Positions 6,095 through 42,127 of a stretch of 64,000 nt of DNA are shown in pieces. Origin of the DNA: Candidatus Eiseniibacteriota bacterium (GTDB lineage Bacteria; Eisenbacteria; RBG-16-71-46); NCBI GenBank assembly GCA_963717935.1, contig CAVQXP010000002.1:32001-96000 (forward strand). Reading direction: 5' to 3'. The notes under the pieces were generated by a model. The model did not search any database, was not told the origin of the DNA, and worked only from the letters and a program-made list of their open reading frames with translations. The position numbers and the translations under genes were made by a program. Every line of letters begins with the position of its first letter. The stretch's first letter is position 1.

Positions 6095-7675
6095 TCACCG
6101 GAACTGCGATTCCCGGAAGTGGATGCTGCGGAAGGTCCAGAACTCGGCGCCACTCTTCCACGCGTCCTTCGTGAGCCCCGCCTTGAGGCAGAGGTTCTCC
6201 ATGAGCGCCGTCTTGTCCCAGCCCTGCTCGGCCGGCACCTGCGGCAGGAACACCGCCACGCGGCCGTCCTTGCGGATCTGGACCCCGTCGCGGCCGAGGA
6301 CGACCGCGTCGGGGCCGGCGACCCGCTCGAGCGGGGTGAGCACCGAGATCTCGATCTCGAGGTCCCCGAGCTCCGCGGGCTCGACGGGCGGGAAGCGCGG
6401 GTCCTCGAGCGCGGCCGAGAGCGCCATGGCCCCGACGTTCTGCGCGAGCGGCCGGTCCCCGGCCAGGTGGCCGATGCAGCCGCGCAGCTCGCCGCGCGCG
6501 TAGAGGGTCACGAACACGCCCTGCTTCCGCCGGGCGGCGGGGGAGAAGCCGCGCGGGAGCGGCACGGTGCCGGTCGCGAACCAGCGCTCGAGCGTGCGGC
6601 GCGCCAGCCGCAGCAGCGCCCTCTGGTCGGCGGGGCCGAGCGCCGCGTCCCCCGCCGGATCGGGTGGGGGGCCGAGCGCCGCGGTGTCCGCGTCTCCACG
6701 GCCCGAGGTGAACATCACCGCGCCGTAGCCCACGACGTGCGCGGGGTCGCCCACCGGCACGTCGCCGCTGTTCGCCCGCGACAGCACGATGCCGCGCCGG
6801 GCGCCCAGCGCCCGCGCCGCCTCCATCGCCACCATGACCGCCCCCTCTCCGCAGGCGCAGGTTTCGAGGCCGCGGTGGCCGGCCCGCAACTGCGCCGCCG
6901 CGACCTGCTGCAGTGCCGCCGGATCGAGCCGCGCGATGGCGGCAAGCACGGCGCGATCCGCGGCGAGACTGCCCTCGGAGTCGGGGTAATGCGACAGGTC
7001 GCTGCTCGCCACGATCAGGACGCGGCGTCCGGCGAGCACGCGCGCCAGCGCCTGGGCGATGCGCGCCAGGGCCGGCGGGTCCTCCGTGCCGACGACCACG
7101 GGCAGGATCCTCGCATCCGGCAGCACGACCTGCGCGAACGGCACCTGCACCTCGATCGAGTGCTCGCGCTCGTGGACACGCGCATCCGAGTTGAAAGGCC
7201 CGCCCGTGGCCAGCAGCGCCGCGGCGGCCGCCGTGTCCACCTCGGCCACGCCCAGCGGCGTGCGGAAGCCCGCCCCCGGGTAGACGGAGGCGCCCGAGAA
7301 ACCCGGCGTCGTGTGGTTCGTGCCGAGGATGACGACCAGGTCGTACGCCCGTCCCGCCGCCTGGCGCCAGCCGTCGGCTGCGATCTGCCCCGAGTAGACG
7401 TAGCCCGCGTGCGGCAGGACCAGCGCGACGGGGCGCTCGTTGCGCGCCGGGACGGCGTCGGCGAGGAACGCCTTCACCGCGGCCTCGAGCTTCGCGGGCT
7501 CCTTCGGGTAGAACTGTCCCGCGACCGCGGCCGGCCGCACGCCGGCCTCCGGCGTCGTGGCCGCGGGGGAGGAACAGGTCGAGGCGCTGAAGACGAGCGC
7601 CGCGGCGAGCAGAGCCGGCAGGGCGATCCAGGGGCCCGGGCGCTTCACGAGCCGGCGCAGCGGAGGGTTCGTCAT
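6095..7675 (-). CDS. amrB: AmmeMemoRadiSam protein B-protein A fusion (MEMO1 + AMMECR1 domains) with an N-terminal signal/anchor
   Basis: ATG overlaps the upstream stop (ATGA). Hydrophobic N-terminus. MEMO motifs RPAAVAGQFYP, PHAGYVYSG, EHSIEVQ, SSDLSHY, CG, VGY. AMMECR1 motifs GVFVTL...LRGCIG, DPRF, IEISVL, FLPQV, LCLKAG. Confidence 0.9.
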   Translation of the reverse strand: MTNPPLRRLVKRPGPWIALPALLAAALVFSASTCSSPAATTPEAGVRPAAVAGQFYPKEPAKLEAAVKAFLADAVPARNERPVALVLPHAGYVYSGQIAADGWRQAAGRAYDLVVILGTNHTTPGFSGASVYPGAGFRTPLGVAEVDTAAAAALLATGGPFNSDARVHEREHSIEVQVPFAQVVLPDARILPVVVGTEDPPALARIAQALARVLAGRRVLIVASSDLSHYPDSEGSLAADRAVLAAIARLDPAALQQVAAAQLRAGHRGLETCACGEGAVMVAMEAARALGARRGIVLSRANSGDVPVGDPAHVVGYGAVMFTSGRGDADTAALGPPPDPAGDAALGPADQRALLRLARRTLERWFATGTVPLPRGFSPAARRKQGVFVTLYARGELRGCIGHLAGDRPLAQNVGAMALSAALEDPRFPPVEPAELGDLEIEISVLTPLERVAGPDAVVLGRDGVQIRKDGRVAVFLPQVPAEQGWDKTALMENLCLKAGLTKDAWKSGAEFWTFRSIHFRESQFR

Positions 7676-8598
7676 CCTCGGCTCCGGGGAGCGGGACGCA
7701 TCACGTGCGCGGGCGCGTCGAGCGCGGCCAGGTCCGCGCCGGGCTCGCCCGCGGTGAACAGGACCGCACCATAGCCCACGACGCGTGCGCGGTCGCCCGG
7801 CGGAGCGTCGCCGCTGCTGGCGTGCGAGAGCACCGCGCCGCGCGTGGCGCCGAGCGTCCTCGCGGCCGCCAGCGCCGTGAGCACCGGCGCCAGGCCGCAG
7901 GCGCAGGTGTCGAGCCCGCGGCGCCCGGCGCCCTCCTCGCGGGCGATGGTCTCGCGCAGCCCGTCCGGGTCGAGCCGTGCCATGGCGGCCAGCACCGCGC
8001 GGTCCGCGGCGACGGCGTCCTCGTAGGAAGGGAAGTGCGAGAGGTCGCTGCTCGCCACGATCAGCGCGCGGCGGCTGGCGAGCACGTTCGCGAGCGCCAC
8101 GCCCAGCCGGGCGCACAGGTGCGGGTCCTCGTCGCTGACGATCACGGGCAGGATGGGCACGCCGGGCAGCACGGTCTGCACGAACGGCAGCTGCACCTCG
8201 ATCGAGTGCTCGCGCTCGTGCGGCGCAGGGTCCGAGGAGCAGTCGCGGTCGGCGGCGAGCAGGGCGGCGGCGGCCTGCTCGTCCACCTCCACGACGCCGA
8301 GCGGCGTGCGGAAGCCGCTGCCGATGAAGACCGAGACGCCGGTGAAGAAGCCGGCGGTGTGGTTCGTGCCGAGCAGGACGACCAGATCGTAGCGGTGGCC
8401 CTGGGCCTGCCGCCAGGCGTCGGCGGCGATCAGCCCCGAGAAGGCGAAGCCCGCGTGCGGGACGACCATCGCGAGGGGGCGCCCGCCGCGCGGCGGCAGC
8501 GCCACCGCGAGCAGGGCCCTCACGTCGGCCGCGAGGCGCCGCGGCTCCTGCGGGTAGAACGAGCCCGCCACCGCGGGCGGGCGCACCGGCTGTCTCAT
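7672..8598 (-). CDS. amrB: AmmeMemoRadiSam system protein B (MEMO1 family), no signal peptide
   Basis: RPPAVAGSFYP, PHAG, GTNH, EHSIEVQLPF, SSDLSHF, CG, VVGYGA motifs. Confidence 0.9.
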   Translation of the reverse strand: MRQPVRPPAVAGSFYPQEPRRLAADVRALLAVALPPRGGRPLAMVVPHAGFAFSGLIAADAWRQAQGHRYDLVVLLGTNHTAGFFTGVSVFIGSGFRTPLGVVEVDEQAAAALLAADRDCSSDPAPHEREHSIEVQLPFVQTVLPGVPILPVIVSDEDPHLCARLGVALANVLASRRALIVASSDLSHFPSYEDAVAADRAVLAAMARLDPDGLRETIAREEGAGRRGLDTCACGLAPVLTALAAARTLGATRGAVLSHASSGDAPPGDRARVVGYGAVLFTAGEPGADLAALDAPAHVMRPAPRSRG

Positions 8599-8602
8599 CG
8601 CG

Positions 8603-9853
8603 TCAGCTCCACACGCCCGGGATCGCGCGGGCGCAGTGCTCGCAACGTCCGTCCTTCAGGTGCATTCCGGTCACGAACAGCCCATCGCGCTCGATCACCG
8701 TCCTGCCGCACTTCGGACAGTAGGTGTTGTTCCCCGGGTGTCCCGGCACGTTGCCCACGTACGCGAAGTGCAGGCCCTGCTGCAGGCCGATCTCCCGCGC
8801 GCGCTCGAGCGTGGCCACGGGTGTGCCCGGGAGGTTGGGCAGCTGGTAGTCGGGATGGAAGCGCGTGAAGTGGACGGGCACGTCGGGCCCGACCTCGCCC
8901 ACGATCCACTTCGCGAGTTCGGTCAGCATCCCGGGCGAGTCGTTGAGCGTGGGCACGACCAGGTTCACGATCTCGAGGTGCACGCGGCTCTTCGCCACCT
9001 GCCGGATGCTGCGCAGCACGGGCTTCAACTCCGCTCCGCACACGTCGCGGTAGAAGCCCTCGCTGAACCCCTTGAGGTCCACCTTGATGGCATCGAGCAC
9101 CTCGCACATCTCGGCCAGCGGTGATTCGTTCATGTAGCCGCACGAGATCAGCACCGAGCGCCGGCCGAGCGGCCTGCCCGCCCGCGCGATGTCGGTCAGG
9201 TACTCGGTGAAGACCGTCGGCTCGTTGTAGGTGAAGGCGATGACCGGCGCCCGCCGCTCGACCGCGGCGCGTGCGAGGCTCGCGGGGGGCAGCGGCGCCT
9301 GAGCATAGTCCTCGGGGCGGGCCTGCGAGATCCCCCAGTTCTGGCAGAACTTGCAGCGCAACGGGCAACCGCTTGTCGCCAGCGAGTATGCGGCCGCTCC
9401 CGGCAGGAAGTGGAAGAACGGCTTCTTCTCGATCGGGTCCACGTGGATGGCCATGGGCCGCCCGTAGACCAGGCTCCTGAGTTCCCCGTTGACGTGGATG
9501 CGCGCCCGGCACATGCCGCGCTCGCCCTCGGCCAGCGTGCAGTCCCGCGCGCACAGCGTGCAGCGGATGAGCGCGCGCCGGTGCGCGGGCTTCACGCCCG
9601 CGGCGAGCGAGCCCGCCGGGTGACAGGCCGCGCAGTCGGCCCTGCCCGCGGTGGCGGTGGAGACCCAGTAACGCGCCCGCGGCGCGGCGCGGACCAGGTC
9701 CGCGAGCAGGTCGTTCGCGGCGCAGGCGGGCTCGAGCGGGAGCGGGAGCCACCCGTGCGACCCGGAGAGCAGGGTGCTTCCCGCCAGCAGGGCCCCGCAG
9801 GTGGCGCAGGTCCTCAGCAGGAAATCACGGCGGGTGGATGTGCGTCGGGACAT
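8603..9853 (-). CDS. amrS: AmmeMemoRadiSam radical SAM enzyme with a twin-arginine (Tat) signal
   Basis: N-terminus MSRRTSTRRDFLL. DPIEKKPFFHF; CPLRCKFC (CxxxCxxC); TYNEP; VHFTRFHP; YVGNV; C-terminal CPKC/CEHC. Confidence 0.92.
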   Translation of the reverse strand: MSRRTSTRRDFLLRTCATCGALLAGSTLLSGSHGWLPLPLEPACAANDLLADLVRAAPRARYWVSTATAGRADCAACHPAGSLAAGVKPAHRRALIRCTLCARDCTLAEGERGMCRARIHVNGELRSLVYGRPMAIHVDPIEKKPFFHFLPGAAAYSLATSGCPLRCKFCQNWGISQARPEDYAQAPLPPASLARAAVERRAPVIAFTYNEPTVFTEYLTDIARAGRPLGRRSVLISCGYMNESPLAEMCEVLDAIKVDLKGFSEGFYRDVCGAELKPVLRSIRQVAKSRVHLEIVNLVVPTLNDSPGMLTELAKWIVGEVGPDVPVHFTRFHPDYQLPNLPGTPVATLERAREIGLQQGLHFAYVGNVPGHPGNNTYCPKCGRTVIERDGLFVTGMHLKDGRCEHCARAIPGVWS

Positions 9854-9944: not shown

Positions 9945-12701
<2,757 letters not shown>

Positions 12702-12992: not shown

Positions 12993-14546
12993 CTACCTCT
13001 CCGCGAACACGCTGGGGTAGCGCGCGAGGAAGGCGATCGCGTGCTGCAACTCGCGCAGGTCCAGGACCTCGCCGATCTGGTGCGCGTTCTGCATGATCCC
13101 GCTGCCGAAGCCGAACAGGGCCGGGTGGCGGTGCTCGCCCGTGGTGACCCAGCGCTTCGATTCCGGCACGATCAGCACCCGATCGCTCACGGGCACGGGC
13201 CAGCCCACGCCGTCGGTCGAGAACACCCAGCGGTCCACGTGCGGCTCGCGGCGCAGCGAGCCGCCTTCCTCCCGTCGCACGTCCACGTGCGGCGTGATCA
13301 CGCTGCGGTAGGTCGCCAGTGCCGCCTGGATGGCGGGGTGCTCCTCGGGCGTCAGCCAGGCCAGGTAGACCTGGGGGTTCCCGGGCACGTAGCCGCGCCA
13401 GGTGGGTTGCTCGTAGACCGGCACCATGACCTCGACCGTGAGGCCCGCGGCGCGCGCGCGGCGCACGGTCTCGAGCGACTCGATGTCACGCAGCGCCTGC
13501 TCGGGCGATTCCCCGGTGGTGAGCCGCCGGTCGAGACGGAAGGTGAAGCGCTCGGGCACGGAGCAGTCGCTCGGGGTCTCGACTTCGGCCCACGAGGCGG
13601 TGCGCGAGCCGGGGCCGAGCAGCGGGTCGCGCAGAAACCCCTCGCCCCGCTCGTGCTGTGCGGTGGCCTCGGCGAGGACCGCGCTGCCGTGCTCGAGCGG
13701 GTTCAGGCCCTCGCGCGGGATCGAGCCGTGGCACGAGCGCCCGGTCACCCGGACCTCGATCATCATGCGGCCGCGCTGACCACGGCGGATGCCCAGCGCG
13801 CCGTTCGCCGTGTCGCCGGTCATCTCGGTGAGCACGACGACGTCGGGGAGCATGGCGGACGGCGCACCGGGGAACACGCGGCGCGTGAGGTAGAGCGGCC
13901 CGCCGCCCTCGTTGTCCTCCTCGGCCAGCGTGACGTAGCTGCGCACGACCGCGCCGTGCAGCGCACCCTCGGGCCTCAACTCGAGCAGGATGCGCGAGGC
14001 GATGATCTGCGCCACCACGCCGCCCAACTGGTCCGCGGCGCCGCGGCCGAAGACCAGGTGCTCCCACTCGTCGTCGGGCGGGAGCCAGCCGAGTTCCCGT
14101 CGCAGGTAGCCGCGGTCGAGCCGCGCGGGGTCGACGAGCCCGAGGAACGGGTCGAGCCCGCCGGTCTTCTCGTGCCACTGGGCGCGCAGCGGCCTGACCG
14201 TGTCGCCGTGGCCGTCCAGGTAGATGACACGCTTCTCGCGGCGCGGCACGCCGTCGTCGCGGTCCTCCAGCACCCAGTTGAGGTTGCCGAAGGCGTCGTA
14301 GCCGATGTCGTCCTCGTGCACGACCGCGCCGGCCTCGAGGATCGCGCGCCGCAGGTACTCCAGGCGCGGGCCCTCGTGGTTGCTGATGCCGCACAGCGGG
14401 TCGCCGCCCTGCACGAGCGGCCGGTCCACGTGGTCGGCGGGGATGCGGATGGCCTCCCGCAGGATGGAGGCCGCGAGCGGCAGGTCCCGCGCGGCGGCCG
14501 CCGCGATCTTCGCGTCGAGCCCGCCGCGCGAGGCGCCTTCGCTCAT
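12993..14546 (-). CDS. M20 family metallo-amidohydrolase, YgeY-like
   Basis: DGHGDTV, GRGAADQLGG, EED, VLTE, GQRGR, CHGS and AH motifs; starts 4 nt after the ygeW stop. Confidence 0.75.
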   Translation of the reverse strand: MSEGASRGGLDAKIAAAAARDLPLAASILREAIRIPADHVDRPLVQGGDPLCGISNHEGPRLEYLRRAILEAGAVVHEDDIGYDAFGNLNWVLEDRDDGVPRREKRVIYLDGHGDTVRPLRAQWHEKTGGLDPFLGLVDPARLDRGYLRRELGWLPPDDEWEHLVFGRGAADQLGGVVAQIIASRILLELRPEGALHGAVVRSYVTLAEEDNEGGGPLYLTRRVFPGAPSAMLPDVVVLTEMTGDTANGALGIRRGQRGRMMIEVRVTGRSCHGSIPREGLNPLEHGSAVLAEATAQHERGEGFLRDPLLGPGSRTASWAEVETPSDCSVPERFTFRLDRRLTTGESPEQALRDIESLETVRRARAAGLTVEVMVPVYEQPTWRGYVPGNPQVYLAWLTPEEHPAIQAALATYRSVITPHVDVRREEGGSLRREPHVDRWVFSTDGVGWPVPVSDRVLIVPESKRWVTTGEHRHPALFGFGSGIMQNAHQIGEVLDLRELQHAIAFLARYPSVFAER

Positions 14547-14550
14547 CGGA

Positions 14551-15696
14551 CTACTTCCCGAGCGCTTCCAGCCGTTGCGCGAGGTTCGGGACCTTCGCCA
14601 CCGCGAGCAGCGCCATGATGGCGTACATCTTGTACTGGGCCTGGCGCGCGACGTTCACGGTGTGCTGCCGCATCACCCCGTGCGAGACCTCGTCGCCGAT
14701 GTCCGCGGGCAGCGGGTGCATGTAGAGCGCGTCCCCGCCCCGGGTGAGTCCCATGCGGTTCTCGTTGCAGATCCAGTCCTTGTGCTTCGCGTTGCCCGCC
14801 AGCGCTTCCCTCTCGATCTCGCCCAGGCGCGCCTTGTCCTTCGCCTTGTTGGCCTCGACGCGCTGGAGCATGAGGTCGTAGGGGCCCCAGGACTTCGGAT
14901 ACACGATGTCGGCGCCCTTGAACGCCTCGTCCATCGAGTTCACCACCTTGAACGAACCGCCCGAGGCCTTCGCGCTGGCCGCGGCGAACTCCATGGTGTC
15001 GGGCATCAGGTGGTAGCCCTCGGGGTGGGCGAGCACCACGTCCGCGCCGAAGCGGGTGAAGAGCATGGAGCAGCCCTGCGCCACCGAGAGCGGCTTGGCG
15101 TACGAGGGCGAGTAGGCCCAGGAGATGGCGATCTTCTTCCCCTTGAGGCCGCCGGGGTTGCACTCGCGCATCCACATCAGGTCGGCCAGCGTCTGTGTCG
15201 GGTGGTCGATGTCGCACTGCAGGTTCACGACCGGCACGCGGCGCGGGTCCCGGGTCGCGGCGAGGTAGTCGTCGATGCCCTGCTTCACGTCGCGCATGAA
15301 GCGGTTGCCCTCGCCGATGATGAGGTCGTGGCGCACGCCCAGGGCGTGGGCGTTCATCCCGAGCATGGCGCCGGTCTCGACCGCGGTCTCGCCGTGCGAG
15401 ACCTGCGTGCTGCTGCCGTCCACGATGACCGGAGCCAGGCCGAGTCGCGCGCAGGCGCCGGCCCAGGCCGACTTCGTGCGGGTGGACTGGTCGAAGAACA
15501 GGGCCCAGCCCAGCTCGTCCTTGAACAGCGCGGTGGACTTGCCGGCGTAGTCGAGGCCGGCGAAGCGGCCGATCACCGCCATCAGGATCTCGAGCTCGGG
15601 TGTGGTCCAGTCACGGGTCAGCAGCAGGCTGCGGCCAAAGAGGGAATCGAGCGCCGCGCGGGCGGGGACCGGTGGGAGGGACGTCACGGGACTCAT
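14551..15696 (-). CDS. ygeW: Knotted carbamoyltransferase YgeW
   Basis: ATG after AGGAG. DQSTRT, HGET, NLQCDIDHPTQTLAD, SWAYSPSYAKPLSVAQG (YgeW signature), YPKSW, YMHPLPAD. Confidence 0.85.
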   Translation of the reverse strand: MSPVTSLPPVPARAALDSLFGRSLLLTRDWTTPELEILMAVIGRFAGLDYAGKSTALFKDELGWALFFDQSTRTKSAWAGACARLGLAPVIVDGSSTQVSHGETAVETGAMLGMNAHALGVRHDLIIGEGNRFMRDVKQGIDDYLAATRDPRRVPVVNLQCDIDHPTQTLADLMWMRECNPGGLKGKKIAISWAYSPSYAKPLSVAQGCSMLFTRFGADVVLAHPEGYHLMPDTMEFAAASAKASGGSFKVVNSMDEAFKGADIVYPKSWGPYDLMLQRVEANKAKDKARLGEIEREALAGNAKHKDWICNENRMGLTRGGDALYMHPLPADIGDEVSHGVMRQHTVNVARQAQYKMYAIMALLAVAKVPNLAQRLEALGK

Positions 15697-16031
15697 GCTG
15701 ACTCCTTGCAGGTGCGGGAGCCGGCGGACCCCTCGAAGGTCCCGGCCGGCGCCTCGGGATGGCGGATGGCATCGTCTGGCCGCCGCGCTCGAGGGATCGA
15801 CAAGCCGCAGGTGGCCACAGTCACGAGATCGGCCCGGCATCGTACCCGCTGTGCCGGACCGCGTTCAACCCGGGTTGGGCCGTTCCGTGGCCCGACGGGC
15901 CCGCGCCGTGCGGGCCCGTTTCGTCAGGAACCCGTGCAGGCGGCTGCGTTTGCCCGCGGCAGGGGCCTCGGTTATCCTCCTTGGTCCCTCACGAACGCAG
16001 GTCTTCCCGCGAATCTCTAAGGAGCCATCGG

Positions 16032-17510
16032 ATGCGGGCTACTCCGAAAATCAACGAAGCCGTCCTTGCCAAGACCGCCGCGCGGTGCCGCGAGCGCAAG
16101 ATCATCATCCCCACCTTTGCCGAGCAGAAGGACCCGAGCCGGATCCCGGAGCCGATCAAGAAGCGGCTGGCCGGGGTGGGCCTGTGGGACGTCAACCCCC
16201 TCAACCTCTACCGGATCACCTGGAAGAACGAGCCGAAGGAGAAGGGCGGGTTGTTCAATCGCGGCAACTGGATCGAGTTCCCGAGCGAACTCACGGGGGT
16301 GAAGGCCCGCATCGTCGGTCTCGTCGGCAAGTACTTCCCCACGGGCGCGCACAAGGTGGGCGCCGGCTTCGGCTGCCTCGTGCCGCGGCTCGTGTCCGGC
16401 GAGTTCGACCCGGACACGCAGAAGGCCGTCTGGCCCTCGACGGGCAATTTCTGCCGCGGCGGCGCCTTCGACTGCGCGCTGCTCGCCTGCAAGGCCATCG
16501 CCATCCTGCCCGAGGGCATGAGCCGCGAGCGCTTCGACTGGCTGCGCGAGATCGGCACGGACGAGGTCATCGCGACCCCGGGCACCGAGTCGAACGTCAA
16601 GGAGATCTACGACAAGTGCTGGCAGCTGCGGACGGAACGCGGTGACAAGATCTCGATCTTCAACCAGTTCGAGGAGTTCGGGAACGCGATCTGGCACTAC
16701 ACCCTGACCGGCTCGATCATCGAGGAGGTGTTCGGCCAGATCCGCAAGCCGGACAGCCGGCTCGCCGCGTACATCTCCGCGACCGGTTCGGCGGGCACCA
16801 TCGCGGCCGGCGACTACCTGCGCACCAAGTTCCCCCACGTCAGGGTCGTGGCGACCGAGGCGCTGCAGTGCCCCACGCTGCTGCAGAACGGCTTCGGCGC
16901 GCACCGCATCGAGGGCATCGGCGACAAGCACGTGCCCTGGGTGCACAACGTGCGCAACACCGACATGGTCGCGGCCATCGACGACGAGCAGTGCATGAGC
17001 CTGCTGCGGCTGTTCAACGAGGAGGAGGGGATCGCGTTCCTCGAGCGCAGCGGGGTGAAGGCGGACTTCCTCAAGCTGCTGCCGCTGGTGGGGATCTCCA
17101 GTATCGCGAACGTCGTGGCGGCCATCAAGACGGCGAAGCACTACGAGCTGGACGGGCGGGACATCCTGTTCACGCCGCTCACCGACTCGATGGAGCTCTA
17201 CGGGTCGCGCAAGCAGGAGCTGCGCGAGGAGCACGGTCCGTACACCCGCGAACGCGCGGCGCAGGACTTCGCCCGTTACCTCGAGGGCGCCGGGATCGAC
17301 TACCTGCAGGAACTCGGCTACCACGACCGCAAGCGGCTCCACAACCTGAAGTACTTCACCTGGGTGGAGCAGCAGGGCAAGAGCTCCGAGGAACTGGCCG
17401 CCCTGTGGGAGCCCGATTTCTGGACCGAGACCTGGGCCCAGGTCGGCGAGTGGGACCGGCTCATCCAGCAGTTCAACGAGCGCACGGGCCTGCTCAAGAC
17501 GCTCGACTAG
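16032..17510 (+). CDS. Fold-type II PLP-dependent enzyme (cysteine-synthase/Trp-synthase-beta superfamily), function unknown
   Basis: ATG after AAGGAG. FPTGAHKVG (PLP Lys), STGNF, TGSAGT, HRIEGIG, GISS. Confidence 0.8.
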   Translation: MRATPKINEAVLAKTAARCRERKIIIPTFAEQKDPSRIPEPIKKRLAGVGLWDVNPLNLYRITWKNEPKEKGGLFNRGNWIEFPSELTGVKARIVGLVGKYFPTGAHKVGAGFGCLVPRLVSGEFDPDTQKAVWPSTGNFCRGGAFDCALLACKAIAILPEGMSRERFDWLREIGTDEVIATPGTESNVKEIYDKCWQLRTERGDKISIFNQFEEFGNAIWHYTLTGSIIEEVFGQIRKPDSRLAAYISATGSAGTIAAGDYLRTKFPHVRVVATEALQCPTLLQNGFGAHRIEGIGDKHVPWVHNVRNTDMVAAIDDEQCMSLLRLFNEEEGIAFLERSGVKADFLKLLPLVGISSIANVVAAIKTAKHYELDGRDILFTPLTDSMELYGSRKQELREEHGPYTRERAAQDFARYLEGAGIDYLQELGYHDRKRLHNLKYFTWVEQQGKSSEELAALWEPDFWTETWAQVGEWDRLIQQFNERTGLLKTLD

Positions 17511-17611
17511 CGCGCGCCGCGCGCGTCGCGGACGGGAGCCGTCACCGGGCGGCTCCGAGTCACCGACCGACAATCGATCGCGCCCGACCGGGCGCGGATG
17601 GAGTGGGGAAC

Positions 17612-18562
17612 ATGACGACCGAGAAGAAGCTCGCCATCCTCGCGGTGGGCGGGAATTCACTGATCATGGACGAGTCGCACAGGTCGGTGGAGGACCAGTA
17701 CGCCGCCGTCGAGGAGACCTGCCGCCACATCGCGGGACTCGTGAAGGCCGGCTATCGGGTCGTGGTGACCCACGGCAACGGTCCGCAGGTCGGTTTCATC
17801 CTGCGGCGCAGCGAGCTGGCGGCCCACGAGCTGCACCAGGTGCCGCTCGACTCGTGCGGCGCCGACACGCAGGGTGCGATCGGCTACCAGGTGCAGCGGG
17901 CGATGTACAACGAGATGAAGGACTGGCCGCAGCGCTCCGTGGTCGCCACCGTGGTGACGCAGGTGCTGGTGGACCGCAACGACCCGTCCTTCAAGAAGCC
18001 GTCGAAGCCGATCGGCTCCTTCATGGACGAGAAGACGGCGACGGAGCACCGGCAGAAGGACCGCTGGGACATCGTCGAGGACGCCGGGCGCGGGTTCCGC
18101 CGCGTCGTGGCCTCGCCACGGCCCCTGCGGATCATCGAGCTGGAGGCCATCCGCCGGCTGCTCGAGAACGACATCGTGGTGGTCGCGGTGGGCGGCGGCG
18201 GCATCCCGGTGATCGAGGACGAGAAGGGCCATCTGCGGGGTGCCGCGGCCGTGATCGACAAGGACCTCGCGACCAGCCTGCTCGCGCGCGACCTGAAGGC
18301 CGACCTGCTCATCATCTCGACCGCGATCGAGAAGGTCTGCCTCAACTACCGCAAGCCCGACCAGAAGGACATCGACCGCATGACCCTCGCGGAGGCGAAG
18401 AAGTACCTGGCCGAGGGCCACTTCGCACCGGGAAGCATGAAGCCCAAGATCGAGGCCATCATCGAGTTCCTCGAATCCGGCGGGAAGGAAGCGCTCATCA
18501 CCGACCCGCAGCACCTGGTGCCCGCGCTGGAGGGCAAGTCGGGCACCTGGATCGTCGCGTGA
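17612..18562 (+). CDS. arcC: Carbamate kinase
   Basis: AVGGNSL, THGNGPQVG, TQG.IGY, KPIG, GRGFRRVVASP, GGGGIPV, AVIDKD, GSMKPK. Confidence 0.95.
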   Translation: MTTEKKLAILAVGGNSLIMDESHRSVEDQYAAVEETCRHIAGLVKAGYRVVVTHGNGPQVGFILRRSELAAHELHQVPLDSCGADTQGAIGYQVQRAMYNEMKDWPQRSVVATVVTQVLVDRNDPSFKKPSKPIGSFMDEKTATEHRQKDRWDIVEDAGRGFRRVVASPRPLRIIELEAIRRLLENDIVVVAVGGGGIPVIEDEKGHLRGAAAVIDKDLATSLLARDLKADLLIISTAIEKVCLNYRKPDQKDIDRMTLAEAKKYLAEGHFAPGSMKPKIEAIIEFLESGGKEALITDPQHLVPALEGKSGTWIVA

Positions 18563-19797
18563 GCGCGAAGGCCGGGGCTGCGACCGGCCTGCGGTGCGTC
18601 GCCTGCGGTCGGCTCACGCCGGTCGCCGACGACCTCTACGTCTGCCCGGGCTGTGGCGGGAACACGCTGGTCGAGTACGACCTCGACGCGCTGAGGAAGA
18701 GCTGGTCGCGCGAATCACTCGCGAAGAACGGCGACCGCACGCTCTGGCGCTACCTGCCCATCCTGCCCGTGAGCGCCCGGCTCGAGGGGCCGCCGGTCGG
18801 CTGGACGCCGCTGGTCGCCGCCCCGCGCCTGGCGCGGGAGCTCGGGCTCGCGCAGCCGCTGCTGCTCAAGGACGACGGGCGCAATCCCAGCGCCTCGTTC
18901 AAGTGCCGCGCCAGCTCGGTGGCGCTCAGACGCGCGCAGGAGCTCGGGCACACGCTCGTGACCGGGGCCTCGACCGGCAATGCCGCCTCGGCGACCGCCG
19001 TGCTCGCCGCCGCGCCCGGCATCCGCACGCGCATCTTCGTGCCGAAGACCGCGCCGCGGGCGAAGATCGCCCAGCTGCTCACCTTCGGCGCCGAGGTGCT
19101 GGCGGTGGACGGCACCTACGACCAGGCCTTCGACCTCTGCCTCGAGGCCACGCGCCGGTTCGGCTGGTACAACCGCAACACCGGCTTCAACCCCTACACG
19201 CGCGAGGGCAAGAAGACGGTCTCCTTCGAACTCTGCGAGCAGCTGGACTGGCAGGTGCCGGACCTGGTCGTCGTGCCGGTCGGCGACGGCAACATCCTCT
19301 CGGGCGTCTGGAAGGGCTTCGTCGAGTTCCAGCGCCTGGGTTTCATCGAACGCACGCCCCGGCTGCTCGCGGTGCAGGCCGAGGGCAGCGCGGCGATCGT
19401 GAAGGCCGCGGCCGGCGACGGCGTGATCCGGCCGGTGTCGGGAGACACCGTGGCGGACTCGATCTCGGTGAGCCTGCCGCGCGATGGCGAGGCGGCCGTG
19501 AAGGCGATCCGCGAGTCGGGCGGGTTCGGCGTCACGGTGAGCGATGCCGCGATCCTCGCCGCCATCGGCGAGGTGGCGCGCGGCGCGGGCGTGTTCGCCG
19601 AGCCCGCGGCGGCGGCCTCCTGGGCCGGGCTCAAGGAGGCCGCGCGCCAGGGCCTGGTGGACCCGGCCTGGCGCATCGTGGCGCTCATCACCGGCAACGG
19701 ACTCAAGGACGTGGCCTCGGCCATGAAGGTGGCCGGCGAGCCGCGGATCATCCCGCCGGACGCCAGCGTGCTCGATACGTTGTTCCCCGAGGGGTAG
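18559..19797 (+). CDS. Threonine-synthase-like PLP enzyme with an N-terminal Zn ribbon
   Basis: GTG overlaps the arcC stop. CVACG...CPGCG; LWRY; NPSASFKCR; STGNA; EGKKT; PVGDGN; EPAAA; ITGNGLKD. Confidence 0.8.
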   Translation: MSAKAGAATGLRCVACGRLTPVADDLYVCPGCGGNTLVEYDLDALRKSWSRESLAKNGDRTLWRYLPILPVSARLEGPPVGWTPLVAAPRLARELGLAQPLLLKDDGRNPSASFKCRASSVALRRAQELGHTLVTGASTGNAASATAVLAAAPGIRTRIFVPKTAPRAKIAQLLTFGAEVLAVDGTYDQAFDLCLEATRRFGWYNRNTGFNPYTREGKKTVSFELCEQLDWQVPDLVVVPVGDGNILSGVWKGFVEFQRLGFIERTPRLLAVQAEGSAAIVKAAAGDGVIRPVSGDTVADSISVSLPRDGEAAVKAIRESGGFGVTVSDAAILAAIGEVARGAGVFAEPAAAASWAGLKEAARQGLVDPAWRIVALITGNGLKDVASAMKVAGEPRIIPPDASVLDTLFPEG

Positions 19798-19867
19798 CGA
19801 AGGAAGCAGGAACCACAGTCAGCGTCGCGCTCGACTGTCGACAATCAACCGATCTGGGAGAAATGCC

Positions 19868-20824
19868 ATGAGGAGCTTCATCGGACGTGACATCCTGTCG
19901 CTCAAGGATTTCGAGCGCGACGATTACACCCGCATCTTCGAGGTGTGCGAGAAGCTCGCGCCGCACGCCCACAACCGCCGCAACACCGACCTGTGCGCGG
20001 ACAAGACGCTGCTGACCGCGTTCTACCAGCCGAGCACCCGCACCCGCCTGTCCACCGAGGCCGCGATGCACCGCCTGGGCGGCCACGTCCTGGGCTTCTC
20101 CGACGCCAAGATGACCCGCGCCGGCGACTTCTACCAGGAATCCATCAAGGACACCGTGCGCATGCTCGAGTACTACGGCGACGTGATCGCCATGCGGCAC
20201 TTCCAGCTGGGCGCGCCGGCCGAGGCGGCGAAGCACTCCTCGGTGCCCATCATCAACTGCGGCGACGGCTGGGGCGAGCACCCGACCCAGGTGCTCACCG
20301 ACCTGTACACGATCTGGCGCGAGCGGGGCACGCTCGACGGACTGCGCTGGCTGTGCGTCGGTGACCACCGCATGCGCACCATGCACTCGATCGGCTACGC
20401 CGCCGCGTCGTTCGACATGGAGCTCGACGTGGTGTACCCGCCGGACATGGCGCCCACGGCCGAGTTCAAGCAGGAGCTGGCCGACCGCAACGTGCGCTAC
20501 CACGAGTGGAAGAGCACGTCCGAGTGCATCGACAAGGCCGACGTGATCTACATCGAGCCGGTGGTGCAGGCCGACTACACCAAGTCGCGCGTGGATGCGG
20601 CCGAGGCGAAGAAGGGCCTCACGCCGCCCGAGTACCAGGTCACGCGCACGATGATGCGCGAGAAGGCCAAGCCCGGCTCGATCGTCCTGCACTCGCTGCC
20701 CCGCATGGACGAGCTGCCGGCCGACGTGGACAGCACGCGCCACGCCCGCTACTGGATCGAAGCCGCCAACGGCGTGGTGCTGCGCATGGCGCTGATCGCG
20801 CTGGTGCTGGGCCGCGCCGAGTAG
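19868..20824 (+). CDS. ATCase-like (PyrB-like) carbamoyltransferase of uncertain specificity
   Basis: FYQPSTRT, ESIKDT, INCGDG.GEHPTQ, HSLPR; GGAG RBS. Confidence 0.8.
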   Translation: MRSFIGRDILSLKDFERDDYTRIFEVCEKLAPHAHNRRNTDLCADKTLLTAFYQPSTRTRLSTEAAMHRLGGHVLGFSDAKMTRAGDFYQESIKDTVRMLEYYGDVIAMRHFQLGAPAEAAKHSSVPIINCGDGWGEHPTQVLTDLYTIWRERGTLDGLRWLCVGDHRMRTMHSIGYAAASFDMELDVVYPPDMAPTAEFKQELADRNVRYHEWKSTSECIDKADVIYIEPVVQADYTKSRVDAAEAKKGLTPPEYQVTRTMMREKAKPGSIVLHSLPRMDELPADVDSTRHARYWIEAANGVVLRMALIALVLGRAE

Positions 20825-21011
20825 ACGGCCTTCCGGAGACTCACGCGCGGCGGGTCGTCACGGCCCGCCGCGCGGTCCGTTCCGGGCGGTGGGGCGGTGC
20901 GCCGCGGTCCGGGCGCCGTCGTCCGTTGCTCCCTGCCGGCGCGGCGCGTTGCCGGCGCGGCGCCCGCAGGCTAGCATGACCGCGACCCGGACTCCGACCC
21001 GTGAGGTGACG

Positions 21012-22556
21012 ATGGCCGCCGAGTACCGCTTCCCGCCGCTCGTGGATCTCGAGGACGACACACCGCGACGCGCGATCGTGACACGCGACGCGGCCGAGGA
21101 GCGCGCCTTCCTCGATCACCTGCGCCGCGGCGTGGTCGGCGCGGACGCGACGTTCCGCACGCCGGAGGGGGAGAAGCCGCTCCTCTATTTCGACTACATC
21201 GCCTCGGGCCGCTTCCATCGCGCCGTCGAGGACGAGCTGGCCGGGCGCGTGCTGCCCTTCATGGCCAACACGCACACCGATTCCTCGTACACCGGGCGGC
21301 TCATGACGCGCTATTACGAGGACGCGTTCCGCCGCATCGGGCGCTACCTGAACGCGGGGCCCGACGACGTCATCATCCCGGTGGGTGCGGGCTCGACCGG
21401 CGCCGTGAACCGGCTCATCGCCATCCTGGGCCTGCGGATCCCCTGCCAGCTCGAGGACCGCTACCGGCTCTCGAGCAGGATCCCCGCCGGGGAGCGCCCG
21501 GTGGTGTTCCGCAGCCACATGGAACACCACAGCAACGACATCACCTGGCGCGAGACCATCGCCGAGACGGTCTACGTGGACTTCGACGCGCACGGGCGCG
21601 TGAGCCTCGAGCACCTGGACCTGCTGCTCGAGACCTACGCGGACCGGGCGCTCAAGATCGGCACCTTCTCGGCCGCCTCGAACGTCACGGGGATCCTCAA
21701 CGAGACCGGCGCGATCGCGCGGGTGCTGCACGCGCACGGGGCGCTGGCCTTCTTCGACTACGCCGCCTCGGGCCCCTACGTGGACATCGACCTGCATCCC
21801 GCGGGGGCCGACGGCCGCCCCGACGAGGCGGCCGCCAAGGACGTCGCGTTCTTCTCGGTCCACAAGTTCCTGGGCGGACCGCGCACGCCGGGGCTGCTGG
21901 TCGCGAACCGGCGGCTGTTCACGAACCGCGTGCCCGCGGAGCCCGGCGGCGGCACCGTGCTCTACACCTCGCCGACCGAGCACGTCTACCTGCCCGACTT
22001 CTTCCACCGCGAGACCGGCGGCACGCCGCCCATCGTGGGCAGCATCCAGGCCGGACTGTGCTTCGACCTCAAGCACGCGATCGGCTCCGAGCGCATGCGG
22101 CGGATCGAGCAGGACTACCTGCGGCGCGCGCTGGCCGAGTGGACGAGGAACCCCGGGCTCGAGGTGCTGGGCAACCCGGAGCCCGAACGGCTGGGCGTGG
22201 TCTCGCTCATCTTCAAGGGCGTGCACCACAACCTGGCCTCGGCCCTGCTCAACGACTTCTTCGGCATCCAGGTCCGAGGCGGCTGCATGTGCGCCGGGCC
22301 CTACGGCCACGAACTGCTGCACATCGACCAGGGCATCTCGCTCGCGATCAAGCACGAGCTCGAAGAGGGGCACATCGGTGTGAAGCCCGGCTGGGTGCGC
22401 ATCTGCTTCTCGCCCGTGACGGGCGAGAACGAGTTCCAGACGCTGCTCGAGGGCGTCGACTTCGTCTCGAAGCGCGGGCGCGAGTTCTACGACCGCTACA
22501 CGCTCGACGATCACACCGGCGAGTGGCGCCGCACCGGGAAGGGCGCGAAGGCGTAG
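21012..22556 (+). CDS. Aminotransferase class V PLP enzyme (cysteine desulfurase/selenocysteine lyase-like)
   Basis: ATG after GAGGTG. YFDYIASG, EHHSN, ASNVTG, FDYAA, SVHKFLGG, GGTP, RGGCMCAGPY. Confidence 0.85.
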   Translation: MAAEYRFPPLVDLEDDTPRRAIVTRDAAEERAFLDHLRRGVVGADATFRTPEGEKPLLYFDYIASGRFHRAVEDELAGRVLPFMANTHTDSSYTGRLMTRYYEDAFRRIGRYLNAGPDDVIIPVGAGSTGAVNRLIAILGLRIPCQLEDRYRLSSRIPAGERPVVFRSHMEHHSNDITWRETIAETVYVDFDAHGRVSLEHLDLLLETYADRALKIGTFSAASNVTGILNETGAIARVLHAHGALAFFDYAASGPYVDIDLHPAGADGRPDEAAAKDVAFFSVHKFLGGPRTPGLLVANRRLFTNRVPAEPGGGTVLYTSPTEHVYLPDFFHRETGGTPPIVGSIQAGLCFDLKHAIGSERMRRIEQDYLRRALAEWTRNPGLEVLGNPEPERLGVVSLIFKGVHHNLASALLNDFFGIQVRGGCMCAGPYGHELLHIDQGISLAIKHELEEGHIGVKPGWVRICFSPVTGENEFQTLLEGVDFVSKRGREFYDRYTLDDHTGEWRRTGKGAKA

Positions 22557-36503: not shown

Positions 36504-37280
36504 CTACAGCCCCATCACGTGGTAGCCGGCGTCCACGTAGAGGGTCTCGCCGGTGATGCCGCTCGAGAGGTCCGAGAGCAGGAAGAGCCCGGCGGTGCCG
36601 ATCTCCTCGCGCGTGATGTTGCGCCGCAGGGGGGCCCGCTCGGCGTGGTGCCGCAGCAGGCCGACGAAGCCGTGGATGCCGCGCGCGGCCAGCGTGCTCA
36701 CCGGGCCGGCCGAGATGGCGTTCACGCGGATGTCCTTCGGCCCCAGCTCCCAGGCCAGCTGGCGCACGCTCTGCTCGAGCACCGCCTTGGCGCTGCCCAT
36801 GACGTTGTAGTTGGGCACGGCGCGCTCGGCGGCGAGGTAGGAGAGCGTGACGATGCTCGCCCCGTGGCGCTCGAGCAGCGGCAGCAGGTGGTTCGTGACG
36901 TTGAGCAGCGAGTAGGCGCTGACCTCGAGCGCGAGCTGGAAGCCCTCGCGGGAGGTCGCGACGAACTTGCCCTCGAGGTCCTGCCGGCGCGCGAAGGCGA
37001 TGCCGTGGACCAGGCACTCGACCGAGCCCCATTCGCGATGCAGCCGTCGCGCGACGGCGCTGATGGTGCGGTCCTCGGTCACGTCGCAGGCGAGGGTCAG
37101 CGTGCCGGGCAGGCGCGAGGCCAGCTCCTCGACGTCGGCCCGCAGGCGCTCGCCGGCGTAGGTCAGGCACAGCGCGGCGCCCGCGTGGTGGAGTTGCCGC
37201 GCGATGGCCCACGAGAGGCTGCGGTGGTTGGCCACGCCCATGACCACGGCGTGCCTGCCGCTCAGGTCGATCGTGATCAC
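36504..37280 (-). CDS. fabI: Enoyl-ACP reductase FabI
   Basis: GTG after GGAGGA, overlapping the upstream stop. GVANHRSLSW, HGIAFA, SAYSL, PNYNVMGSAK, NAISAGP..TLA, ITGE.LYVDAG. Confidence 0.92.
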   Translation of the reverse strand: MITIDLSGRHAVVMGVANHRSLSWAIARQLHHAGAALCLTYAGERLRADVEELASRLPGTLTLACDVTEDRTISAVARRLHREWGSVECLVHGIAFARRQDLEGKFVATSREGFQLALEVSAYSLLNVTNHLLPLLERHGASIVTLSYLAAERAVPNYNVMGSAKAVLEQSVRQLAWELGPKDIRVNAISAGPVSTLAARGIHGFVGLLRHHAERAPLRRNITREEIGTAGLFLLSDLSSGITGETLYVDAGYHVMGL

Positions 37281-39295: not shown

Positions 39296-39301
39296 GGCGG
39301 G

Positions 39302-39330
39302 ACCATAGGAACTCGCGGGCCTCGAATCAA
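39302..39330 (-). promoter_or_regulatory. Sigma70-type promoter, probably leaderless
   Basis: TTGATT-17 nt-TATGGT-CCCGCC-GTG. The hexamers are identical upstream of the paralog while the spacer differs. Confidence 0.7.
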
Positions 39331-39384
39331 GCGCCGTCTACGCGGGCCGGCCGGCCGCCGGCCGCGGCGCGCCCCCGGGCGTTC

Positions 39385-41364: not shown

Positions 41365-41370
41365 GGCGGG

Positions 41371-41399
41371 ACCATAGGGATTCGACCGGCCCGAATCAA
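41371..41399 (-). promoter_or_regulatory. Sigma70-type promoter, probably leaderless
   Basis: TTGATT-17 nt-TATGGT-CCCGCC-GTG. Confidence 0.7.
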
Positions 41400-41416
41400 G
41401 GGGGAGCCGTAAGGGC

Positions 41417-42127
41417 ATGAACCTGCTCGATCGCCGCGGCGCGTTCCGCCCCCTCGACGACGTGGCCCGCGCGGTGATGGCGTGCGAGCGGTGTCCGCGG
41501 CTGCGGGCGCATTGCCGCCAGGTGGCCGAGGTGCGCAAGCGCGAGTTCCGCGACCAGCCCTACTGGGGCCGGCCGGTACCGGGCTTCGGCGACCGCCGGG
41601 CGCGGCTGCTCATCGTGGGCCTGGCGCCGGCGGCGCACGGCGCCAACCGGACCGGGCGCATGTTCACGGGCGACTCGAGCGGCGACTGGCTCCACGAGGC
41701 GCTCCACCGCGCGGGTTTCGCGAGCCAGCCGCACTCGGTGAGCCGGGACGACGGCCTGCGCCTCACGGACGTCTGGGTCACCGCCGCGGCGCGTTGCGCC
41801 CCGCCCGGGAACCGGCCCACGCGCGAGGAGCTCGCCCGCTGCCGCCCCTTCCTCGAGGCGGAGATCGCCAGACTGGCGCGCGTGCGCGTCGTGCTCTCGC
41901 TGGGTGGCGTTGCTCACGAGGCGTGGCTGCGGGCCTCCGGCTGGTGGGAGCGGCTGCCGGCCCGCCAGCGGCCGCGCTTCGCCCACGGGGCCGAGACCGC
42001 CCTGCCGGACGGGCGCGTCCTCGTGGCCTCGTACCACCCGAGCCGCCAGAACACGAACACGCGCCGCCTCACGCGGAAGATGTGGCACGCGGTCTTCCGC
42101 CGCGCGCGCCGGCTCCTCGACGAGTGA
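41417..42127 (+). CDS. udgB: Uracil-DNA glycosylase family 5 (Fe-S)
   Basis: CERCPRL, YWGRPVPGFGD, GLAPAAHGANRTGRMFTGD, RCAPP.N.P, SYHPS.QNT. Confidence 0.9.
   Translation: MNLLDRRGAFRPLDDVARAVMACERCPRLRAHCRQVAEVRKREFRDQPYWGRPVPGFGDRRARLLIVGLAPAAHGANRTGRMFTGDSSGDWLHEALHRAGFASQPHSVSRDDGLRLTDVWVTAAARCAPPGNRPTREELARCRPFLEAEIARLARVRVVLSLGGVAHEAWLRASGWWERLPARQRPRFAHGAETALPDGRVLVASYHPSRQNTNTRRLTRKMWHAVFRRARRLLDE

Follow-up and report, generated by a model that had tools for sequence, protein, structure and literature searches.

What reaction sequence is encoded by a gene cluster in which homologues of YgeW, YgeY and carbamate kinase stand beside two fold-II pyridoxal phosphate (PLP) enzymes and a second carbamoyltransferase? 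The question is raised by positions 12993 to 22556 of a 64,000-nucleotide stretch of a Candidatus Eiseniibacteriota genome (assembly GCA_963717935.1, contig CAVQXP010000002.1, here C2), which corresponds to C2:32001-96000 and is hereafter called the window. Comparison with its relatives suggests that the cluster probably forms the lower, ATP-yielding half of the reductive degradation of uric acid through 2,8-dioxopurine, in what is likely a variant form that employs two carbamoyltransferases and in which the PLP enzymes PLP1 and ThrCl replace YgeX (diaminopropionate ammonia-lyase, DpaL). We infer the roles of these two proteins, and those of the carbamoyltransferase ATCl, the metallohydrolase M20w and the class V PLP enzyme AT5, from homology and gene context.

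The reductive route from urate was solved only in 2025, and for gut bacteria only, according to the available texts of Li et al. 2025 (PMC12507026), a commentary by Percudani (PMC12990295) and Liu et al. 2025 (bioRxiv 10.1101/2025.04.24.650524). As set out there, XdhD and YgfM convert urate into 2,8-dioxopurine, ring opening by SsnA and HyuA yields 2,3-diureidopropionate, YgeW turns one ureido group into carbamoyl phosphate from which YqeA then makes ATP, YgeY hydrolyses the other ureido group, and YgeX splits 2,3-diaminopropionate into pyruvate and ammonia. The intervening dearomatisation of 2,8-dioxopurine is attributed to YgfK or, in C. difficile, to UacX, a member of the DHO_dh family (PMC12507026).

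The assembly comprises five contigs and 3.02 Mb, with about 7% of the genome unassembled, and has a GC content of 71.5%. As the GC content of the window is similarly high (about 71%), reading frames were chosen by third-position GC content (GC3) and family matches. Seven intact open frames, with a GC3 of 0.91-0.94, make up two divergent operons:

12993..14546, minus strand: M20w, divergent YgeY-family M20 metallohydrolase, 517 aa, with several insertions
14551..15696, minus strand: YgeWw, YgeW-family carbamoyltransferase, 381 aa
15697..16031, no strand: divergent intergenic region, 335 bp, presumed to hold the promoters of both operons
16032..17510, plus strand: PLP1, CysK-fold PLP enzyme with N- and C-terminal extensions, 492 aa
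17612..18562, plus strand: ArcC, carbamate kinase, 316 aa
18559..19797, plus strand: ThrCl, class-II threonine-synthase-like PLP enzyme with an N-terminal four-Cys zinc ribbon, 412 aa
19868..20824, plus strand: ATCl, paralogue of aspartate carbamoyltransferase (ATCase), a 'pseudo-ATCase', 318 aa
21012..22556, plus strand: AT5, NifS/SufS-like class V PLP enzyme, 514 aa

The original prediction had drawn these genes in the correct order and at the correct coordinates, including the two fold-II PLP enzymes at 16032-17510 and 18559-19797. An AAGGAG site lies ahead of the ATG of YgeWw, whose longest open reading frame, reaching 15840, is probably too long; M20w starts 4 nt past the YgeWw stop, the GTG start of ThrCl overlaps the ArcC stop, and the AT5 start at 21012 (20889 in the list of open reading frames) is backed by an orthologue alignment (A5). 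Each of the seven genes is single-copy in the genome by tblastn, so that there is one carbamate kinase and one PLP1, and Rfam gave no match between 12000 and 24500 at E values up to 0.1.

Distribution of PLP1 and of the upper-pathway genes

The window itself contains no dpaL, hyuA, ssnA, ygfK or xdh, as originally noted. In the genome as a whole, dpaL and ygfK are likewise absent, and SsnA-like, XdhD/YgfM, hydantoinase and selD genes are present. The best match to the DpaL model NF006058 reaches 83.8 bits against a cut-off of 276, and E. coli YgeX has no tblastn match in the genome at 1e-8. An SsnA-like hydrolase (C2:27391-28950; 272 bits against a cut-off of 444) is 35% identical to E. coli SsnA over C2:27394-28485 and is divergent from a fusion of PreT-like and PreA/DHO_dh-like parts (C2:28451-31381), the two genes lying approximately 14-17 kb upstream of the cluster. 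Contig C4 carries an XdhD orthologue in two adjacent frames (C4:1582807-1585669), which are 54% and 52% identical to E. coli XdhD and whose TIGR03313 scores of 652.5 and 573 bits jointly exceed the cut-off of 1101.9, together with a YgfM-like gene (34% identical to E. coli YgfM). The same contig encodes a dihydropyrimidinase-type hydantoinase in three frames (C4:157003-158375; TIGR02033, 347.6, 140.8 and 37.5 bits), 36% and 46% identical to E. coli HyuA, and selD (339 bits) lies on the main chromosome. The frame changes in the XdhD and hydantoinase genes are single-base shifts, which may be errors of a long-read assembly or real decay and bear on whether the pathway functions in this strain.

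Across a collection holding one genome per species, 568 PLP1 relatives were confirmed and the best 80 loci kept, in all of which PLP1 is 65-90% identical; they belong to Planctomycetota, Verrucomicrobiota, Myxococcota, Woeseiaceae, Kiritimatiellia, Elusimicrobia and others. All counts rest on tblastn and family searches, and GC3-based gene calling erred at several high-GC loci. With E. coli proteins as tblastn queries, the 80 loci contained XdhD in 32 cases, SsnA, YgeY and YgeW in 31 each, YqeA in 27, YgfK in 25 and HyuA in 3, and YgeX in none. ThrCl is encoded in 42 of these loci, directly beside PLP1 in 20 of the 42. A Woeseiaceae locus (L056) reads YgfK, SsnA, an FAD subunit (YgfM-like), a selenium-type xanthine dehydrogenase (XDH), PLP1, YgeY (512 bits), a carbamoyltransferase, a carbamate kinase and ThrCl.

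In 50 of the genomes behind the 80 loci, picked mainly for their longer loci, an SsnA-like gene was found at E values up to 1e-40 in all 50 (over the cut-off in 29), a ThrCl orthologue in 49, a hydantoinase over the cut-off in 47 and a DpaL over the cut-off in one. The idea that HyuA, seen in only 3 of the 80 loci, had also been replaced is ruled out by these searches, since a hydantoinase is encoded elsewhere in 47 of the 50 genomes and HyuA is thus unlinked rather than missing. We further considered 151 genomes of the window's own phylum, which are interrelated and include many incomplete metagenome-assembled genomes (MAGs), so that the counts overstate independence. PLP1-type genes occur in 59 of them and SsnA-like genes in 58, all 58 within the 59; both are spread patchily over the genera, with identical counts genus by genus (8/11 in g3, 2/9 in g4 and 1/4 in g7), and DpaL was found in 0/151. 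Judged by this distribution, PLP1 appears to be a marker of the reductive urate pathway, and the proposal that fold-II PLP enzymes take the place of DpaL fits the comparative data, from the single DpaL in 50 PLP1 genomes to its absence from the phylum sample and from the genome itself.

The cluster is also conserved as a unit. The PLP1-ArcC-ThrCl-ATCl block recurs at an identity of at least 60% in 9-11 of the 80 fetched loci and is 75-82% identical to the blocks of other phyla, while the full layout including AT5 recurs in Eisenbacteria MAGs; because block and layout recur, the arrangement is not due to chance. Contigs from three RNA libraries (X16, X17, X18), which represent relatives in metagenomes, cover all seven genes at 90-99% identity, one contig of 1721 nt spanning PLP1, ArcC and ThrCl. 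These contigs are at most a weak hint of expression, as such libraries may contain DNA. Among sequencing runs, the share of the sampled words found in any one run was at most 0.30.

Enzymes of the cluster

The minus-strand pair comprises divergent members of the YgeW and YgeY families. YgeWw shares 49% identity with E. coli YgeW across 354 aa and scores below both curated models (NF005538, 385.8 bits against 453; TIGR03316, 363.3 against 500). In a quick tree, its clade is one of Eisenbacteria (17 rows, support 99) and has the clade of E. coli YgeW (14 rows, support 100) as its sister group; the joint clade of 31 rows has a support of 100 and is separate from the ornithine carbamoyltransferases and ATCases. 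M20w reaches 171.9 bits with the YgeY model NF009555 (cut-off 321) and is 29% identical to E. coli YgeY, with which it has the motifs HxD, GRGxxD, EED and SCHGS in common. In the same alignment (A6), H113/D115, D172, E209-E210-D211 and S271-C-H273-G-S are invariant, and we take these residues to be the metal-binding and catalytic positions of the M20 family. Orthologues of M20w at 66-70% identity are found in Eisenbacteria loci.

On the plus strand, ArcC exceeds the cut-offs of NF009007 (402.8 bits against 266) and TIGR00746 (367.4 against 358.25), is 47% identical to E. coli YqeA and is the sole carbamate kinase of the genome. ATCl scores 228.3 bits with the ATCase model TIGR00670, below the cut-off of 236.95, and forms a clade on a long branch beside the ATCases in the quick tree. 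The carbamoyl-phosphate site is retained (STRTR, HPTQ, R168 and HSLPR; alignment A1), a proline occupies the position of R230 of the E. coli precursor, and the segment EPVVQADY that contains it is the same in all 6 aligned orthologues. The genome's own PyrB, encoded at C4:1090557 next to pyrC (argF is also on C4), keeps both the R and the Q of the RXQ motif that is altered in ATCl. The roles of these residues, such as that of the arginine presumed to bind the aspartate side chain, are our assumption and agree with Table 1 of Barba et al. 2013. Set against the patterns of that table, ATCl keeps STRT, HPTQ and H[ST]LP and has lost RXQ, which is the pattern of the ATCase-like proteins that Barba, Dutoit, Legrain and Labedan named pseudo-ATCases (2013, PMC4016543).

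ATCl is present at an identity of at least 64% in 17 of the 50 PLP1 genomes. None of these 17 has canonical YgeY, scoring at least 478 bits (478-624), which is present in 31 of the 33 genomes without ATCl (Fisher p = 1.7e-11, a value overstated by the relatedness of the genomes); a weaker YgeY-like gene of 324-444 bits accompanies ATCl in 4 of the 17, adjoining it in two of the four. This anticorrelation fits a capture of both carbamoyl groups for ATP, as had been proposed for the two carbamoyltransferases when the cluster was first noticed.

PLP1 matches the Pfam family PALP, falls well short of the CysK model (TIGR01139, 108.1 bits against 350.95) and has no match to the DpaL model NF006058. 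Across 39 sequences, K108, the S136-T-G-N139 loop and the S249-T256 loop do not vary. Its AlphaFold2 model (predicted local distance difference test score, pLDDT, 84; predicted template modelling score, pTM, 0.88) has a core of the CysK/cystathionine beta-synthase type with extensions at both ends, and the best Foldseek matches in the PDB are O-acetylserine sulfhydrylases (target TM-score 0.74-0.83, 20-28% identity), generic folds of that type that offer no substrate-level hint. Given the invariant PLP lysine K108, S-T-G-N loop and phosphate loop, the predicted structure fits an enzyme that eliminates or replaces a beta leaving group of an alpha-amino acid, and it does not name the substrate.

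ThrCl is a homologue of the class II threonine synthases. It scores above the broad model TIGR00260 (204 bits against 167), just below PRK08197 (NF006050, 299.4 against 303) and far below DpaL (NF006058, 44.5 against 276), and its best solved relative is the threonine synthase 2ZSJ (294 bits). C13, C16, C29, C32 and K115 are invariant in 39 sequences. The genome has a canonical thrC elsewhere (C4:1552329), which with 222.5 bits scores better than ThrCl. Around residue 116, the window and its closest relative (L009) share the PLP-lysine motif SFKCR, where the other 37 aligned sequences have SFKDR or a near variant; the Asp after the PLP lysine is thus nearly invariant in the family and is a Cys in these two. 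The alignment position that we take to be the phosphate-binding arginine varies within the family, and we draw no conclusion from it.

The last gene of the plus-strand operon, AT5, matches the Pfam family Aminotran_5 (113 bits) and falls far below the SufS model (TIGR01979, 119.9 bits against 475.1). It was read as NifS/SufS-like because the PLP lysine (K285, SxHK) and the RGGCxCAG motif (R422-G-G-C425-x-C427-A-G) are kept, both being invariant in 13 sequences. AT5 relatives are mostly labelled Candidatus Eisenbacteria, as are the closest PLP1 and ATCl loci, and in 17 of the 28 fetched AT5 loci the gene stands beside a gene of the window-type cluster. Two layouts recur in this lineage. In layout A (11 loci), M20w (66-70%), YgeWw (67-73%) and a different carbamate kinase (43-47%) stand beside AT5; ten of these loci also have a PLP1 paralogue and lack ThrCl and ATCl, and three have an XDH-family gene beside M20w. 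Canonical PLP1 was found in 0 of the 5 layout A genomes searched, and ThrC-like matches are of only 35-40% identity in 10 of the 11 genomes, with no match in one. In layout B, that of the window and its closest relatives, canonical PLP1, ArcC, ThrCl and ATCl lie between YgeWw and AT5. A further locus, L149, carries YgeWw, PLP1, ArcC, ATCl and M20w in this order on one strand and has no ThrCl. Our guess is that AT5 is a conserved, lineage-specific accessory of the cysteine- or selenocysteine-lyase type, donating sulphur or selenium to the molybdenum hydroxylase.

Ten of the 11 layout A loci have a PLP1 paralogue of just 44-47% identity, located approximately 1-3 kb downstream of AT5 (L132, L134, L135, L138, L139, L141, L142, L143, L146 and L148). 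These paralogues form a second PLP1-like family, true PLP1 being at least 65% identical across phyla. Both types track the SsnA-like gene, and they occur together in no genome of the 151-genome phylum sample.

Several neighbouring genes deserve mention. Directly downstream of M20w and on the same strand, the window encodes a hybrid sensor kinase (9945-12701, minus strand; HisKA, HATPase_c, receiver and Hpt domains), a possible regulator of the cluster, or a gene with no connection to it. Memo-like genes (AmmeMemoRadiSam system protein B) lie nearby (window 7672-8655 and C2:24132-25598, both on the minus strand), and in the relative L044 two such genes adjoin the cluster (L044:1-1931); why they should accompany purine breakdown is not obvious. 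A pair of neighbouring paralogues for amino-acid permeases, approximately 690 and 720 codons long when counted stop to stop, occupies 37277-39337 and 39385-41559 of the window (minus strand). A TupA-like tungstate-binding protein is encoded at C2:15951-16838, and in two Phycisphaerales loci (L036:17625-19868 and L069:10232-12178) a tungsten-type aldehyde:ferredoxin oxidoreductase adjoins the ArcC-ThrCl-ATCl block; these neighbours may hint at an aldehyde intermediate or be a coincidence. Elsewhere in the genome, an FdrA-like protein (497.7 bits against 433) adjoins a fused iron-sulphur/molybdenum protein of the XDH family (C4:261851-267203, L124:3851-9203). According to the title of PMC11326118, FdrA (AllF) is a subunit of oxamic transcarbamylase, and with this gene the genome may have a second ureide route.

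Proposed pathway and competing explanations

In the pathway that we propose, the XdhD and YgfM homologues of the main chromosome would reduce urate, and the PreT/PreA-like fused reductase, in the role of C. difficile UacX and not of YgfK, would dearomatise the ring. The rings would then be opened by the dihydropyrimidinase-type hydantoinase and by the SsnA-like hydrolase encoded a little upstream of the window, to yield 2,3-diureidopropionate. From this compound YgeWw would remove the first ureido group with phosphate and ATCl the second, a step that E. coli accomplishes through hydrolysis by YgeY and for which M20w may provide a hydrolytic alternative, while ArcC would convert each carbamoyl phosphate into ATP. 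PLP1 and ThrCl would jointly stand in YgeX's place and turn 2,3-diaminopropionate, or a mono-ureido compound whose alpha-amine is free, into pyruvate and ammonia. The form of the pathway that bears ATCl may therefore give a second ATP per purine and, given that the PLP1 carriers sampled almost never have YgeX, the environmental form seems to end with other, uncharacterised enzymes. If functions were assigned to PLP1, ThrCl and ATCl, labels such as cysteine synthase, threonine synthase and aspartate carbamoyltransferase would be corrected and the pathway completed for sediment and soil bacteria.

A bolder version of this scheme, which we regard as rather doubtful, holds that PLP1 and ThrCl perform a chemistry new to the pathway, beyond that of a substitute DpaL, and that the Eisenbacteria AT5 is a dedicated sulphur or selenium donor for the molybdenum hydroxylase. 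The CysK-like PLP1 might, for instance, directly beta-eliminate urea or carbamate from albizziin-type intermediates, and ThrCl might catalyse a second step, such as the addition of water or the handling of D/L configuration. If this version were true, hundreds of environmental species would end the pathway with intermediates and products other than those of the gut-bacterial route.

Several observations weigh against assigning the cluster to urate degradation. YgeWw, M20w, ATCl and PLP1 all score below the curated cut-offs of the families that they resemble, as does, by a wide margin, the SsnA-like protein. The upper pathway is scattered, with the XdhD and hydantoinase genes on another replicon and in two and three frames, respectively; YgfK is absent from the genome, and a comparison with E. 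coli K-12 proteins found no UacT-type urate permease in it. No consistent neighbours surround PLP1 in 19 inspected loci of the 80, which is why whole genomes were searched. The pairing of PLP1 with ThrCl is not obligatory, since layout A and L149 lack ThrCl, and a replacement of YgeY by ATCl is not clean in the window genome, which has both an M20 hydrolase and ATCl. It is also unexplained why two PLP enzymes are present here where E. coli needs one.

Some of these facts would also suit the same enzyme logic acting on another substrate, a reduced N-heterocycle or a ureido-amino acid (pyrimidine- or hydantoin-derived, or the plant compound albizziin) instead of urate. The nearest upper enzymes are indeed atypical, with an SsnA-like protein at 272 bits against 444 and a PreT/PreA fusion resembling dihydropyrimidine dehydrogenase in place of YgfK, XdhD is frameshifted in the assembly and on a different replicon, and no UacT homologue was found; this explanation also appeals to cut-offs missed by all lower enzymes, although ArcC itself passes its own. 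However, XdhD is 52-54% identical to its E. coli counterpart and the summed score of its two pieces is above the curated cut-off, a DHO_dh-type reductase in place of YgfK is already described for urate degradation in C. difficile (PMC12507026), the SsnA-like gene accompanies 58 of the 59 PLP1-type carriers of the phylum sample, and XDH-family genes lie near PLP1 in 32 of the 80 loci. We consequently deem another substrate unlikely. The fermentation of a different ureido-amino acid, which the original prediction had held open, is the less likely alternative, since the upper-pathway genes proved to be scattered and not absent.

A different division of the locus would see two modules side by side and serving different compounds, an Eisenbacteria unit of M20w, YgeWw and AT5 and a horizontally acquired PLP1-ArcC-ThrCl-ATCl block. 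The 11 layout A loci, in which M20w, YgeWw and a carbamate kinase of 43-47% identity stand beside AT5 (10 of the 11 with the PLP1 paralogue and without ThrCl or ATCl, and canonical PLP1 in 0 of the 5 genomes searched), would agree with such a split, as would the 75-82% identity of the block across phyla. Yet L149 carries genes of both supposed modules in order and on one strand, and the window genome has a single carbamate kinase and a single PLP1. Moreover, the two PLP1 types are mutually exclusive in the phylum sample and both track the SsnA-like gene, which looks like a replacement within one pathway, and two separate modules strike us as quite improbable. Least credible of all is an anabolic or housekeeping role, with ordinary cysteine and threonine synthases beside a pyrimidine enzyme, or with carbamoyl phosphate feeding a ureido-amino acid natural product. 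ThrCl does pass the broad thrC model and ATCl comes near the ATCase cut-off (228.3 against 236.95), and the equilibria of carbamoyltransferases favour carbamoylation, as stated in PMC4016543. Against this, canonical thrC, pyrB-pyrC and argF are located elsewhere in the genome, ATCl is devoid of the aspartate-binding arginine, no NRPS (nonribosomal peptide synthetase), ATP-grasp or export genes lie near the cluster, and the cluster is strongly linked to catabolic genes for XDH, SsnA and carbamate kinase. The original prediction had itself envisaged a canonical dpaL elsewhere together with ordinary PLP synthases as the outcome that would undo it; what the genome holds is no dpaL, a canonical thrC apart from ThrCl, and a PLP1 at 108 bits against 351 for CysK.

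Comparison with known systems

Individual enzymes of the putative urate cluster have known relatives. PLP1 resembles CysK and cystathionine beta-synthase in fold, PLP lysine, Asn loop and phosphate loop, but has approximately 85 extra residues at the N-terminus and approximately 110 at the C-terminus and lies far below the CysK cut-offs. ThrCl aligns with solved structures of class II threonine synthases across the full catalytic domain, but carries a four-Cys ribbon in addition and exists alongside the housekeeping thrC as a second copy. Like the pseudo-ATCases, ATCl occurs in a context of purine catabolism, and it has a carbamate kinase and a YgeW homologue as neighbours. As reported in PMC4016543, subgroup 1 of those proteins (Rxyl_2847) was shown to be a ureidoglycine carbamoyltransferase, one pseudo-ATCase was found to phosphorolyse allantoate, and subgroup 2 (Nocardioides) adjoins ygeW, xdhABC and hyuA. 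The fourth motif of ATCl (P-V-V) differs from the published patterns AIA/AIS/SIA, GX[SC] and VXP, a comparison made with the patterns only and not with the Nocardioides sequence.

In the open full texts, with subscription journals outside the scope, none of the papers listed by our searches dealt with these PLP enzymes; the terms 'threonine synthase' and 'cysteine synthase' do not appear in the main text of the Liu preprint, of Li et al. or of Barba et al., nor does 'pyridoxal' in the first and third of these. The scoring used in the neighbourhood survey of Li et al. may have a bearing here: according to the legend of its Figure 3, 'YgeX' was scored by PF00291 and 'YgeW' by PF00185 (PMC12507026). 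Since PLP1 and ThrCl also match PF00291, a swap of YgeX would be invisible in that survey, and scoring by PF00185 cannot separate YgeW from an ATCase paralogue.

Taken as a whole, the system shares homologues with the gut-bacterial urate pathway (YgeW, 49%; YqeA, 47%; YgeY, 29%; SsnA, 35%; XdhD, 52-54%; YgfM, 34%; HyuA, 36-46%), as well as the logic of coupling ureido-group phosphorolysis to carbamate kinase. It differs from that pathway in having two other fold-II PLP enzymes and no YgeX, an extra ATCase-like carbamoyltransferase, a PreT/PreA-like fusion for YgfK, an extra NifS-like enzyme and genes distributed over two replicons. The C. difficile variant, as described in PMC12507026, likewise uses a reductase of the dihydroorotate/dihydropyrimidine-dehydrogenase type at the dearomatising step; in contrast to the present system, it has neither YgeW nor carbamate kinase, relies on the hydrolase UacY and keeps YgeX, whereas here YgeX is missing and both ureido groups may be phosphorolysed.

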